From assembly GCF_024298765.1 (NCBI RefSeq), contig NZ_CP101212.1: 64,000 nt of DNA; one strand, given 5' to 3'. Shown one piece after another: positions 951 to 60,033 of this stretch. Each line of letters opens with the position of its first letter. Within the stretch, counting starts at the first letter, position 1. The translations under genes were made by a program, and so were the position numbers. Source of the stretch: Escherichia coli (lineage in GTDB: Bacteria > Pseudomonadota > Gammaproteobacteria > Enterobacterales > Enterobacteriaceae). The notes under the pieces were generated by a model. It ran no database searches. It saw nothing but the letters and a program-made list of their open reading frames with translations, and had not been told where the DNA came from.

Positions 951-2001
951 TTGAGGCTTTCAGTGATGGCTGATATAGCAACAATGAGAATGAAGGCTCT
1001 GCACTTCTGGGATAAACACGGTATTTCTGCAGCTTCTGAAGCCTTTGGCGTATCCTGCCGCACGCTTTACTGGTGGCGTCAGTTACTGAACAAGGGAGGA
1101 CCTGAGGGGCTAATCCCGCACAGTAAGGCACCTCTGGTGCGACGAAAAAAGCACTGGCATCCCGATGTGCTGAAAGAGATTCGACGCCTCAGGACAGAGC
1201 TGCCGAACCTCGGTAAAGAGCAGATTTTTGTTCGCCTGAAGCCCTGGTGCGCATAACGCCATCAGACCTGCCCGAGTGTTTCCACCATCGGCAGAATGAT
1301 CGCCACCGCACACGATAAAATGCGGATGATACCAGTACGTCTGAGCTCGCGGGGTAAGGCTCTGCTTGTCAAAAAGCGAACCACCAAACCCCCGCAGGCC
1401 AAAGCACTACCGTCCGGTAAAGACAGGAGAGCTCATTGGGATGGACGCCATTGAGCTCAGAATGGGTGAAATGCGTCGCTATATCATTACCATGATCGAC
1501 GAACACAGCGATTACGTACTGGCGCTGGCTGTGCCGTCGCTCAACAGTGATATCGTCAATCACTTTTTCAGCCGTGCAGCCCGGCTGTTCCCTGTCGGTA
1601 TCAGCCAGATCATCACAGATAACGGGAAAGAGTTCCTGGGAAGCTTTGACAAAACGCTGCAGGAAGCCGCCATCAAACACCTCTGGACCTATCCCTACAC
1701 GCCAAAAATGAACGCTATCTGTGAACGTTTTAACCGGGCATTAAGAGAGCAATTCATTGAATTTAATGAAATTTTACTCTTTGAGGATCTGGCGTTGTTT
1801 AACCTGAAACTGGCGGAATATCTGGCGCTGTATAACAGCAAAAGACTCCACAAGGCGCTCGCACTAACGACGCCCGTGGAATATATTTTAAAAGAGAACA
1901 AAAATTGCAATATGTGGTGGACCCATACACAGCAAACGCACAGGCCGCCCCGGTTGGGTAGATATGTGGGATGGCTGGTTCAGACTTCAGGATATGGTTG
2001 A
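951..2001 (+). pseudogene. IS481/IS3-like DDE transposase remnant (HTH N-terminus plus rve integrase core), disrupted
   Basis: ORF 951-1256 encodes an HTH-type N-terminus; ORF 1366-2001 encodes an integrase core with a DDE-like TDNGKEF...ERFNRAL signature; TAA at 1254-1256 and a frame change near 1420-1440 separate them. Confidence 0.6.
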
Positions 2002-2774
2002 GGCTGGTGATGAAGTCTCTTTATCAGGAGATCTGATCAAGAGACAGCCGCGCAGGGGGATTCACTATGCTGGATTCTTTTAACAAATTCTCCGCTAACC
2101 AAAAAATAGACTTTTTGCATTCGTAAATGCGTTAAGAGATAATTTTTAAAGTTCCATCAATCTCCCGGCCAGTTCGTCTCGCGGCATTACTCACTATCCG
2201 CACAACTTCAGTAAGATCATGACTTTTTCAATCGTTATCTGTTGACCAAGCTTTGAAACCACTAGCGTCCCGTCAACCTGACCTGGAATCGTCGAGAACC
2301 GCCCATAGTTGTGAATTGGCTAGAGTGTGATGGAAAGCAACGCTAAACGACCTAGTCACACATTCTCTTTTCCCTAACAATGACCATTTAGTGAAATAAC
2401 GTATCCAAAATGATGACGTGAAAGCCTGACACTGGCAGCGAAAAGCCGAAAAAACTCACCTGGTCAGGAGCAAAAATCGGATTATTCGCCAACAGCGTAA
2501 TATCAGCAGTAGTTCTCGACACGCTTGCGCTATAGACAGAGGATGAAACGCTGCTGGTCGGAGTTCTCTATACATTTTTGGCGACGGCAGAACCGCTCAC
2601 CAATGCCTTAACGTCTATCAGCCTTCCGGTGAGTTGGAACAGCATGCTCAGCGTTTGCAAGATATTCTCCACGGTCTGTAGCAGCGTAGGTTTCAATTTA
2701 AATATCCCCAGATAGCCCTCTGGGAGCTTCCCTTTTTATTAAGTTTTAATTACCGTTGCAATAGTTAAATGATA

Positions 2775-2795
2775 TTGGTAATTATTATCATTAGC
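2775..2795. promoter_or_regulatory. Fur-box-like sequence about 440 bp upstream of iroB
   Basis: taattattatcattagc matches the AATGATAATCATTA core at 12 of 14 positions; no closer Fur-like site seen before the iroB start. Confidence 0.35.
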
Positions 2796-3236
2796 ATTTG
2801 TGTCTGTGTTGTTTCTGGTAAGGCTGAAAGGGAACAAACATCGCCTGTACAACGGCGTTTTTACTTACAGACCAGCGAAGGCGAGACTATCAGGATGATG
2901 CATCGTGTGTCTAAGAAATCACGGTTCTTTCCAGATTCGTTGTTCGGTCTAACACTGCACAAATGCGTCAGAACATCCCGGCGTAGCTGTCCGACGCCAT
3001 TTGGGCTGTTCAACAGGACAATGGCGCGTAAGCGTTAATGGAAGTGGGGATACGGAGTTCCCTGTTCACCTGTGTATGTCACGGAAAAGTCTCTGACTGA
3101 GCTGTCCATAACGCTGGTGAAGCACAAATGGCGCAGCATCTGGTAAAGCAGGTTTAACGAAAAGTCGTGTCCTGCTGCTGGCATATGAGTGCGTCGACTG
3201 CCTGATTTAGATCGTCAAGCGGAGAGGGATTTTCTC

Positions 3237-4352
3237 ATGCGTATTTTGTTTGTAGGCCCGCCTCTCTATGGGCTGTTGTATCCTGTGCTGTCTCTGGCGC
3301 AGGCATTTCGCGTTAACGGTCATGAAGTGCTGATCGCCAGTGGAGGACAATTCGCACAAAAAGCGGCAGAGGCCGGGTTGGTGGTGTTTGACGCCGCACC
3401 CGGTCTGGATTCCGAAGCTGGTTACCGCCACCATGAGGCACAGCGGAAAAAAAGTAATATCGGAACCCAAATGGGCAACTTCTCATTCTTCAGCGAAGAA
3501 ATGGCCGACCATCTGGTGGAGTTTGCCGGACACTGGCGGCCTGACCTCATCATCTACCCTCCGCTCGGAGTCATCGGGCCGCTGATTGCCGCCAAATATG
3601 ATATACCGGTCGTGATGCAAACCGTAGGCTTCGGCCATACCCCCTGGCATATCAAGGGTGTAACGCGTTCGCTCACGGACGCCTATCGTCGCCACAATGT
3701 GGGGGCCACACCACGTGATATGGCCTGGATCGACGTAACACCGCCGAGTATGAGCATTCTGGAAAACGACGGTGAACCCATTATTCCGATGCAGTACGTC
3801 CCGTATAACGGTGGCGCGGTGTGGGAACCATGGTGGGAGAGAAGGCCCGAGCGTAAACGTCTGCTGGTGAGTCTCGGCACTGTCAAACCGATGGTTGACG
3901 GCCTTGATCTAATCGCCTGGGTTATGGATTCTGCCAGTGAGGTCGATGCCGAGATCATCCTGCATATTTCAGCCAATGCGCGGTCCGATTTGCGCTCGCT
4001 GCCGTCAAATGTTCGCCTGGTTGACTGGATACCCATGGGTGTCTTCCTCAACGGCGCAGATGGTTTCATTCATCATGGCGGAGCAGGCAATACCCTGACA
4101 GCGCTACACGCTGGTATTCCACAAATCGTCTTCGGCCAGGGAGCCGATCGCCCGGTAAATGCCCGCGTTGTTGCCGAACGCGGCTGCGGGATTATCCCTG
4201 GCGACGTCGGCCTGTCGAGTAACATGATCAATGCTTTCCTCAACAATCGCTCACTTCGCAAAGCCTCTGAAGAGGTAGCAGCGGAAATGGCGGCGCAACC
4301 CTGCCCAGGTGAAGTGGCGAAAAGCCTGATCACAATGGTACAGAAAGGGTAA
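3237..4352 (+). CDS. iroB: Salmochelin C-glucosyltransferase IroB
   Basis: 371 aa from ATG at 3237 (track ORF begins at an upstream GTG); glycosyltransferase-like N-terminus MRILFVGPP; first gene of an iroBCDE-iroN syntenic block. Confidence 0.92.
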   Translation: MRILFVGPPLYGLLYPVLSLAQAFRVNGHEVLIASGGQFAQKAAEAGLVVFDAAPGLDSEAGYRHHEAQRKKSNIGTQMGNFSFFSEEMADHLVEFAGHWRPDLIIYPPLGVIGPLIAAKYDIPVVMQTVGFGHTPWHIKGVTRSLTDAYRRHNVGATPRDMAWIDVTPPSMSILENDGEPIIPMQYVPYNGGAVWEPWWERRPERKRLLVSLGTVKPMVDGLDLIAWVMDSASEVDAEIILHISANARSDLRSLPSNVRLVDWIPMGVFLNGADGFIHHGGAGNTLTALHAGIPQIVFGQGADRPVNARVVAERGCGIIPGDVGLSSNMINAFLNNRSLRKASEEVAAEMAAQPCPGEVAKSLITMVQKG

Positions 4353-9568: not shown

Positions 9569-10525
9569 ATGTATGCCCGCGAGTATCGCTCAACACGCCC
9601 GCATAAAGCGATTTTCTTTCATCTTTCTTGCCTCACCCTTATCTGTAGTGCGCAAGTTTATGCGAAGCCGGATATGCGGCCACTGGGGCCGAATATAGCC
9701 GATAAAGGCTCCGTGTTTTACCATTTCAGCACCACCTCTTTCGACTCTGTCGATGGCACACGCCATTATCGGGTATGGACGGCCGTGCCGAATACAACCG
9801 CACCGGCATCGGGTTACCCGATTTTATATATGCTTGACGGTAACGCAGTTATGGACCGCCTGGATGACGAACTGCTCAAACAATTGTCAGAAAAAACACC
9901 GCCAGTGATCGTGGCTGTCGGGTATCAGACCAACCTCCCTTTCGATCTCAACAGCAGGGCTTACGACTATACGCCAGCAGCAGAAAGCAGAAAAACAGAT
10001 CTCCACTCAGGGCGTTTTAGCCGTAAGAGTGGTGGCAGCAACAACTTCCGCCAGTTACTGGAAACGCGTATTGCCCCAAAAGTGGAACAGGGACTGAATA
10101 TCGATCGGCAACGCCGCGGCTTATGGGGGCACTCCTACGGCGGCCTCTTCGTGCTGGATTCCTGGCTGTCCTCCTCTTACTTCCGGTCGTACTACAGTGC
10201 CAGCCCGTCGTTGGGCAGAGGTTATGATGCTTTGCTAAGCCGCGTTACGGCGGTTGAGCCTCTGCAATTCTGCGCCAAACACCTGGCGATAATGGAAGGC
10301 TCGGCGACACAGGGTGATAACCGGGAAACGCATGCTGTCGGGGTGCTGTCGAAAATTCATACCACCCTCACTATACTGAAAGATAAAGGCGTCAATGTCG
10401 TATTTTGGGATTTCCCCAACTTGGGACACGGGCCGATGTTCAATGCCTCCTTTCGCCAGGCACTGTTAGATATCAGTGGTGAAAACGCAAATTACACAGC
10501 AGGTTGTCATGAGTTAAGCCACTAA
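9569..10525 (+). CDS. iroE: Periplasmic salmochelin hydrolase IroE
   Basis: 318 aa; signal-peptide-like N-terminus; GHSYGG hydrolase motif; synteny. Confidence 0.9.
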   Translation: MYAREYRSTRPHKAIFFHLSCLTLICSAQVYAKPDMRPLGPNIADKGSVFYHFSTTSFDSVDGTRHYRVWTAVPNTTAPASGYPILYMLDGNAVMDRLDDELLKQLSEKTPPVIVAVGYQTNLPFDLNSRAYDYTPAAESRKTDLHSGRFSRKSGGSNNFRQLLETRIAPKVEQGLNIDRQRRGLWGHSYGGLFVLDSWLSSSYFRSYYSASPSLGRGYDALLSRVTAVEPLQFCAKHLAIMEGSATQGDNRETHAVGVLSKIHTTLTILKDKGVNVVFWDFPNLGHGPMFNASFRQALLDISGENANYTAGCHELSH

Positions 10526-59899: not shown

Positions 59900-60033
59900 G
59901 GAATATTCCTCCCGACATGTTCTGACACGCTACCGCCCATCCCTTTTCACGCACAGGGCACTCGTTTTACAGGCAGATTTTGAATACAGAAAGCCCGCCG
60001 GCATTGCCGGCTGATATACAACTTCAGGGCCAG

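Follow-up and report, generated by a model that had tools for sequence, protein, structure and literature searches.

Salmochelin enables pathogenic Escherichia coli and Klebsiella to evade the host siderophore-binding protein lipocalin-2, and the iro cluster marks ColV virulence plasmids as well as hypervirulent lineages. In Salmonella enterica, iroB (iroBCDE) has been described as having a Fur-repressed promoter (Baumler et al. 1996, Gene 183:207, cited in PMC6071977 and PMC3212961). In CFT073, a Fur chromatin immunoprecipitation sequencing (ChIP-seq) peak with a height of 1125 and the motif GCTAATGATAATAATTACC was assigned to both iroB (c1254) and c1255, and iroB RNA and IroB protein were increased 512-fold and ~25,000-fold, respectively, in a fur mutant (supplements of Banerjee et al. 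2020, PMC7157518). The CFT073 Fur regulon obtained by ChIP-exo includes iroBCN (PMC10164565). The available portions of the report by Banerjee et al. (PMC7157518) give the peak and the regulon membership, with no remark on the distance of the site from iroB, on the leader, or on the transcription start. Here, we analyzed the 1.2 kb preceding iroB (positions 2002 to 3236) in a 64,000-nucleotide stretch of E. coli DNA, referred to as the window (contig NZ_CP101212.1 of NCBI RefSeq assembly GCF_024298765.1). A first-pass annotation made from the letters alone had singled out this region as an unusually long apparent leader, devoid of convincing genes, that might hide a small gene or an RNA or in which the true iroB promoter might be a distant Fur-like site. 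We found that the region is partly insertion sequence (IS) debris and filler and partly a Fur-repressed promoter followed by a long, conserved, non-coding leader. Nothing is overturned by this observation, since iroB is already established as a Fur-controlled gene and enterobacterial virulence operons commonly have long leaders. What is new is a conserved, apparently structured, and undescribed 5' leader that separates the iro operons of the E. coli and Klebsiella type from those of Salmonella.

Fur boxes were searched with the 19-mer consensus GATAATGATAATCATTATC, and the chance level was obtained from shuffled sequences. The iroB operator consists of two overlapping 19-mers (Table 1), each of which has 3 mismatches to the consensus (16/19). 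The whole window contains 5 matches of such quality versus 0.01 expected from shuffles. Between positions 2002 and 3260, no second Fur-like site with fewer than 7 mismatches was detected, the next best having 7. The 19-mer on the minus strand is GCTAATGATAATAATTACC, identical to the motif of the CFT073 ChIP-seq peak. In the CFT073 assembly, this motif is chromosomal and is located 437 nt from the iroB ATG in a sequence 92% identical to that of the window, the two versions differing by IS4 and IS200C insertions in the upstream filler of CFT073. The sequence and the position of the box are also conserved across genera. The Fur site at 2771-2795 is thus genuine, and its occupancy may be assumed by analogy with ChIP-seq data on the identical motif of CFT073. 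The last base of the site (2795) is separated from the iroB start codon (3237) by 441 nt. This spacing is unusual, since the Fur boxes of iroN and of a DAHP synthase gene in the same window are only 93 and 49 nt from the respective starts. The first-pass annotation was therefore right on the uniqueness of the site, on its distance (440 bp), on the unusual length of the leader and, essentially, on its coordinates (2775-2795).

A hexamer scan of positions 2735 to 3236, which covers promoters of the sigma-70 type only, revealed plus-strand promoter-like sites exclusively at 2735-2797 and none at 2800-3236. The conserved TTGCAA-18-AATTAT pair overlaps the Fur box, and an alternative -10 hexamer, TATCAT, is present at 2786-2791. 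From these hexamers, we infer a transcription start at ~2792 or ~2798, depending on whether AATTAT or TATCAT is used as the -10 element. Conservation of TTGCAA and of the -10 region extends to Citrobacter, Klebsiella, Raoultella, and two additional lineages, L027 and L048. The identity of the ChIP-seq motif, the location of the only plus-strand hexamers over the Fur box, and the presence of the same promoter immediately in front of iroB in Salmonella and L048 (see below) all indicate that the Fur site is most likely the iroB promoter, with a 5' untranslated region of ~445 nt. The promoter close to position 3237 with its own Fur site that would have contradicted this reading of the first-pass annotation was not found here. 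We consider it probable, with good but incomplete confidence, that a mosaic, a Fur-covered promoter, and a ~445-nt leader together explain the region. The control region of iroBCDE would begin at ~2730 and would comprise a sigma-70 promoter whose -10 element and start are covered by the double Fur box. In the presence of iron, Fur-Fe2+ bound to the operator would exclude RNA polymerase from the promoter (2756-2798), a mode of repression that is well supported. In the absence of iron, transcription would proceed from ~2792-2798 through the leader to the ribosome-binding site of iroB. With an operon start ~445 nt before iroB, reporters, deletion mutants, and transcript annotation must include positions 2730 to 3236.

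Long leaders were found in at least eight lineages, with distances between the Fur box and the iroB ATG ranging from 348 to 491 nt: Citrobacter (475-481 nt), the Klebsiella chromosome (476-482 nt), a Klebsiella plasmid type (366-372 nt), Raoultella (463-469 nt), Mangrovibacter (429-435 nt), L027 (348-354 nt), L029 (485-491 nt), and metagenomic variants (368-388 nt). The long form was retained in lineages with IroB proteins that are only 80 to 90% identical. The comparison with Salmonella, which the first-pass annotation had suggested, was based on two assemblies of a single S. enterica lineage (IroB 85% identical) and revealed a Fur box close to the ATG, yet the same promoter devoid of the leader. 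In this species, the same operon is controlled by the same regulator, and the orthologous sequence GGTAAT.A.TATCATTA.CATTT aligns in the same orientation. The Salmonella box is however 44 nt from the ATG instead of 441 nt, and ~395 nt of the leader (roughly 2820-3215) have no counterpart. A similar architecture was found in L048, a human-gut metagenome contig (UEPN01000146.1, ~10,100-10,230, minus strand) encoding an IroB ~90% identical to that of the window. Its TTGCAA is the same, its Fur box is identical and lies 49 nt from the ATG, and the counterpart of ~2820-3215 is missing. By alignment, one promoter thus serves both the long- and the short-leader architectures. Since the most divergent lineages have the long form, this form is probably the ancestral one, from which the short forms would have arisen by deletion. 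In the iroB upstream regions of Pantoea, Rouxiella, Serratia, and Shimwellia, no Fur box better than 6 mismatches was found, and these loci were not usable for comparison. As a natural short-leader locus, L048 could act as a ready-made deletion control for leader function. Separately, in at least one plasmid, NZ_CP060980.1 of E. coli (25488-25570), the match to the queried leader is limited to its last 83 nt (window 3138-3220, 100% identity). No match to the query was seen there for the part upstream, Fur promoter included; it may have been replaced, and this copy of iroB may have lost Fur control.

Comparison of the leader with the four-fold degenerate sites of iroB revealed a higher identity for the leader in Citrobacter (83% vs 61%), the Klebsiella chromosome (72% vs 62%), and L027 (67% vs 55%), the more distant pairs being saturated and uninformative. 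This indicates that the leader is under purifying selection. The most conserved parts are a core (3006-3136) and the last 100 nt. Consensus folding of the core with RNAalifold and pair counts led to three predicted helices, P1, P2, and P3 (Table 1). In P3, both sides changed at 6 of the 10 pairs, one pair being A-U, G-C, or U-A depending on the lineage. The covariation score, obtained from only 11 sequences and inflated by the derivation of the structures from the sequences used for the counts, was 0.279, compared to 0.164 ± 0.021 for shuffles (0/500) and to 0.04-0.10 for slid partners. An alignment of 8 sequences covering the 3' 246 nt gave a similar covariation result. A covariance model of the core, R1, matched positions 3011-3136 at 124 bits and had no match in Rouxiella, Pantoea, Serratia, Shimwellia, Salmonella, L048, or the rest of the window. 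The core is therefore confined to long-leader iroB loci and is not a motif shared with other operons. Farther downstream, at 3219-3240, an invariant hairpin is predicted to occlude part of the Shine-Dalgarno sequence. Its 8 pairs show no variation and hence receive no support from covariation. GGAGAGGGATTTTCTCATG is conserved even in Rouxiella and Salmonella, indicating that this hairpin, whose sequence is kept also where the long leader is missing, is an element separate from the leader. With regard to an RNA thermometer of the FourU type at the ribosome-binding site, the stability predicted for the local structure drops from -12.7 kcal/mol at 30°C to -8.9 kcal/mol at 42°C, which would be the case for any helix. 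Taken together, these models suggest that the leader is apparently a conserved and partly structured RNA. The RNA that the first-pass annotation had suspected in this region would accordingly be the leader itself, which matches no Rfam family.

The leader is at most a modulator, because expression is not blocked by it and because natural deletions of it have occurred at least twice. Salmochelin production does not require the leader, since Salmonella and L048 lack it and the Klebsiella plasmid type lacks its 5' quarter. An effect on translation or mRNA stability, exerted after initiation, may be inferred. Tentatively, and as a possibility that falls short of being probable, we propose that the ~445-nt leader found outside Salmonella is an undescribed cis-regulatory RNA, in which the core (3011-3136) and the Shine-Dalgarno hairpin would add a post-transcriptional level of salmochelin control to that exerted by Fur. 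The most concrete route would be a CsrA-like mechanism in which an RNA-binding factor contacts both the exposed, conserved GGA loop and the partly occluded, GGA-containing Shine-Dalgarno sequence. Leaders bound by CsrA have a GGA in a hairpin loop and a second GGA over the Shine-Dalgarno sequence. In the iroB leader, P2 keeps an A/C/G-GGA loop in 11/11 lineages, this loop is predicted to be 96 to 97% unpaired, and the Shine-Dalgarno sequence contains GGAG and GGGA. Unlike in CsrA-bound leaders, the number of GGA motifs is at the chance level here. In addition, iroBCD RNA of Salmonella does respond to CsrA, but the effect is an activation, possibly indirect, in a short-leader locus (PMC6347204). 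If the proposal is correct, control would be exerted via CsrA or another RNA-binding factor, via processing, or via premature termination, and this extra layer of control would have disappeared with the deletion of the leader in Salmonella and in one or more other lineages. The natural long- and short-leader variants could readily be compared to learn whether siderophore output is subject to tuning in addition to Fur control.

Leaders of siderophore-related genes provide a second point of comparison. Those of Salmonella iroN, of E. coli shiA and cirA, which are controlled via RyhB, and of fepB also follow a Fur-controlled promoter, are long, and partly sequester the ribosome-binding site. We take the iroB leader to resemble those of shiA, cirA, and fepB, and it belongs to the familiar class of long regulatory leaders of virulence or iron operons. 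It differs by the lack of RyhB dependence of iroB in CFT073 and by the lack of any sequence or Rfam relationship to these leaders.

In addition to the inflated covariation statistics, several observations count against the explanation proposed here. The ChIP-seq occupancy was obtained for the chromosomal copy of CFT073, which is not the plasmid copy of the window. The -35 and -10 hexamers match the consensus at only 8/12 positions, and our literature searches turned up no mapped transcription start for any long-leader iroB. The leader is not present in Salmonella or L048, and its 5' quarter is deleted in the Klebsiella plasmid type. The fold of the single-sequence leader is no more stable than that of shuffles (z = -0.57), and GGA motifs are not enriched (9 observed vs 8.3 expected). 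Several of these points would fit a leader that is a neutral spacer, i.e., an old insertion or leftover that is transcribed but inert. The iro loci of Salmonella and L048 are complete in spite of the missing leader, the 5' part (2824-2929) is dispensed with not only in the Klebsiella plasmid type but also in L027 and L033, the fold energy is unremarkable, and the leader of CFT073 permits the 512-fold and ~25,000-fold inductions of RNA and protein reported above. An inert spacer would however not be expected to be more conserved than the synonymous sites of the adjacent iroB gene, to display compensatory changes at 6/10 pairs of P3, or to be kept as a long form in lineages with IroB proteins of only 80 to 90% identity. 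Moreover, the leader lacks inverted repeats at its ends, and each iro locus contains it only once. We therefore regard the neutral spacer as unlikely, although it deserves to be taken seriously.

Assignment of the promoter to the Fur site could be questioned if a second promoter located inside the leader, near iroB, drove most of the transcription, the distal Fur site mainly controlling a divergent transcript toward c1255. The minus-strand hexamers that overlap the Fur box (Table 1), the 8.6-fold increase in c1255 RNA in the CFT073 fur mutant (PMC7157518), and the restriction of the hexamer scan to sigma-70-type promoters are compatible with this possibility. We nevertheless consider it improbable, since positions 2800-3236 contain neither a plus-strand promoter-like site nor a second Fur-like site (best, 7 mismatches), and since Fur regulation is far stronger for iroB (512-fold) than for c1255. 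Repression of a proximal promoter from a Fur site located 440 bp upstream would be difficult, the short-leader loci have the same promoter right next to iroB, and the open reading frame (ORF) of c1255 is broken in the window. With iroB transcribed from the Fur site, the minus-strand hexamers could still account for the Fur-dependent c1255 RNA as a divergent, probably non-coding transcript.

Post-transcriptional control of the leader by the iron-responsive small RNA RyhB, as in the shiA, cirA, and Salmonella iroN leaders, was considered in the light of published expression data. Salmonella iroN needs RyhB, with a pairing site conserved in CFT073 (PMC7157518), and the amount of Klebsiella iroB RNA in a fur ryhB double mutant was 0.52 relative to that in a fur mutant (PMC3423075). 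In CFT073, in contrast, the increases were similar in the fur and fur ryhB mutants both for iroB RNA (512-fold vs 416-fold) and for IroB protein (25,762-fold vs 21,236-fold) (PMC7157518), indicating that RyhB has essentially no effect on iroB in this strain. RyhB is for these reasons a quite improbable regulator of the iroB leader.

A hidden small protein gene, encoding a leader peptide or the c1255 product, is very improbable: ORFs of 89 and 31 amino acids do exist, and minus-strand hypothetical proteins of 59 to 104 residues are annotated in the chromosomal versions, but the 89-residue ORF (2769-3038) begins upstream of the inferred transcription start and is disrupted in CFT073 and K99B by indels of 2, 1, and 5 nt, translated similarity between genera is equal in all six frames with shifting ORF ends, c1255, whose ends vary from strain to strain, is interrupted by an in-frame stop in the ColV form, and no protein family is matched. 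A small protein or leader peptide gene was accordingly rejected, since relatives share no ORF of the same frame and length. Neither strand of 2002-3236 contains an ORF of more than 89 residues, the NCBI pipeline annotates nothing under this interval in identical ColV-type plasmids, and neither the longest ORFs nor the c1255 homologue matched a Pfam or NCBIfam family. Thus, of the two readings offered by the first-pass annotation, the promoter at the Fur site gained support from the ChIP-seq motif, the hexamers, and the Salmonella and L048 loci, and the hidden small gene did not; the region contains no convincing gene, as the first-pass annotation had stated.

Known leader elements were also sought. 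Rfam 15 covariance models gave no match in 2002-3236, even at E ≤ 1; a sub-threshold COG2908 match inside iroB was obtained at a permissive threshold. A scan for intrinsic terminators revealed no terminator-like site in the leader. A small hairpin (CGCC...GGCG) followed by TTTTT at 2840-2870, ~50 to 75 nt into the leader, resembles a weak attenuator. It lies below the threshold of the terminator scan, is broken in CFT073, and is missing from leaders of the Klebsiella plasmid type. An RfaH/ops-dependent leader of the hly, kps, rfa, or chuA type was rejected, the leader containing no ops sequence (GGCGGTAG). A near-match (GGCGTAGCTGT, 2981-2991) lacks conservation and folds into a covarying hairpin instead. 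The sole exact GGCGGTAG of the window is at 59930 on the minus strand and may mark an RfaH-dependent operon, e.g., transfer or haemolysin genes. An origin of the leader from a transposon, a miniature element, or an IS was rejected, inverted repeats being internal only (10 to 13 nt) and none terminal. The median number of leader copies per genome is one, always at iroB. Finally, IroP, a small regulator of Klebsiella iro loci, was rejected for this region, as its place is downstream of iroN. In the window, the convergent iroE and iroN genes are only 44 bp apart, too close for an iroP-like ORF to fit downstream of iroN.

The first-pass annotation had treated the whole 1.2 kb as a leader, which does not hold for positions 2002 to ~2730. 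Comparison with the chromosomal iro islands of CFT073, K99B, and strain 789 and with another plasmid identified these ~730 to 770 bp as IS debris and island filler located upstream of the promoter and outside the leader. This part would be a non-functional mosaic in which the end of an IS4-family element is followed by a diverged border of the island and by filler specific to E. coli, the latter with a broken spurious ORF (Table 1). The IS4-family remnant adjoins a truncated "integrase core domain" pseudogene ending near 1926, after which the NCBI annotation lists nothing until iroB. The border fragment matches K99B (L003, 2504-2635), CFT073 (L002, 1357-1491), and strain 789 (L004, 3004-3138). 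From 2254 to 3236, the window is ~92% identical to the chromosomal sequence preceding iroB. In CFT073 and strain 789, IS4 and IS200C are inserted and 2290-2403 is missing. This interval is dispensable, since IS4 and IS200C elements occupy it in many chromosomes. Homology with Citrobacter and Klebsiella starts only at 2728-2730, ~40 bp ahead of the Fur box, and conservation across genera extends from ~2730 onward. The c1255 homologue is of low complexity, its start and end vary by strain, and it was not found outside E. coli. With its ORF broken in the window, its variable ends, and its lack of a family, c1255 was rejected as a genuine gene, and its homologue at 2400-2696 is probably not a gene. 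The "hypothetical protein" annotations in this region should not be trusted.

Positions 1900 to 3300 are 100% identical to hundreds of E. coli virulence plasmids of the ColV/ColBM type and to a few plasmids of Salmonella and Klebsiella, and ~620 E. coli records cover at least 80% of 2002-3236. By these matches, the window is a ColV-type E. coli plasmid.

Table 1. Features of the iroB upstream region, with coordinates in the window
Feature	Position	Strand	Description
IS4-family element, right-end remnant	1929-2099		92.6% identity to L004 1536-1711 (annotated end of an IS4-family transposase element, E. coli 789)
Diverged left-border fragment of the chromosomal iro island (tRNA-Arg side)	2100-2251		Non-coding; 79% identity to the matches given in the text
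Upstream filler specific to the E. coli iro island	2254-2730		~92% identity to L003 from 3001 onward; not in other genera
Broken homologue of CFT073 hypothetical ORF c1255	2400-2696	-	TTG start; in-frame stop after codon 42 (...AKNV*RTP...)
Candidate iroB promoter	2756-2785	+	-35 TTGCAA at 2756-2761, 18-nt spacer, -10 AATTAT at 2780-2785
Fur operator	2771-2795		Two overlapping 19-bp Fur boxes offset by 6 bp, 2771-2789 (+) and 2777-2795 (-)
Candidate divergent promoter toward the c1255 remnant	2784-2812	-	-35 ACAACA at 2812-2807, -10 GATAAT at 2789-2784; overlaps the Fur operator
Inferred 5' untranslated leader of iroBCDE	2792-3236	+	~440-445 nt; follows from the promoter position
Conserved, structured core of the leader (predicted)	3011-3136	+	RNAalifold and pair counts; helices P1, P2, and P3
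P1 hairpin (predicted)	3023-3027 with 3032-3036	+	Consensus folding
P2 hairpin (predicted)	3047-3049 with 3060-3062	+	Loop GGA at 3054-3056, kept in 11/11 lineages
P3 helix (predicted)	3065-3075 with 3111-3121	+	Encloses a variable insert
Invariant hairpin over the Shine-Dalgarno sequence (predicted)	3219-3240	+	GCGGAGAG pairs with UUCUC-A-UGC, including the start codon; 8 pairs
iroB	3237-4352	+	Salmochelin C-glycosyltransferase, 371 amino acids; NCBI annotation WP_001318220.1; homologues found

Other Fur boxes of the window were observed in the course of the search. The box at 12841-12859 is an exact copy of the CFT073 iroN Fur motif, AAGAATGATAATTAATATC, located upstream of the iroN start (12747, minus strand). 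The best box of the window (14697-14715, 2 mismatches) precedes the ATG of the DAHP synthase gene (13613-14715, minus strand; Pfam DAHP_synth_1, E = 8e-76), which is probably the counterpart of c1220, a Fur-regulated isozyme of the shikimate pathway reported in CFT073. This gene is followed by a fragment of an IS1 transposase (14856-15359). In unannotated DNA between phage-lysis remnants and the integrase-core pseudogene, a perfect TTGACA at 563-568 is overlapped by a third Fur-like box, which has 3 mismatches (565-583). Positions 480 to 842 are ~87% identical to unannotated chromosomal DNA of many E. coli, and 563-590 may be an orphaned iron-regulated promoter. On the minus strand at 356-477, a strong Rfam match was obtained for the Hfq-binding RNA STnc490 (RF01405, 90.8 bits, E = 1e-17), which we take to be the IS200-associated antisense RNA art200. 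This match suggests an IS200 remnant beside the Rz/Rz1 lysis-gene fragments.

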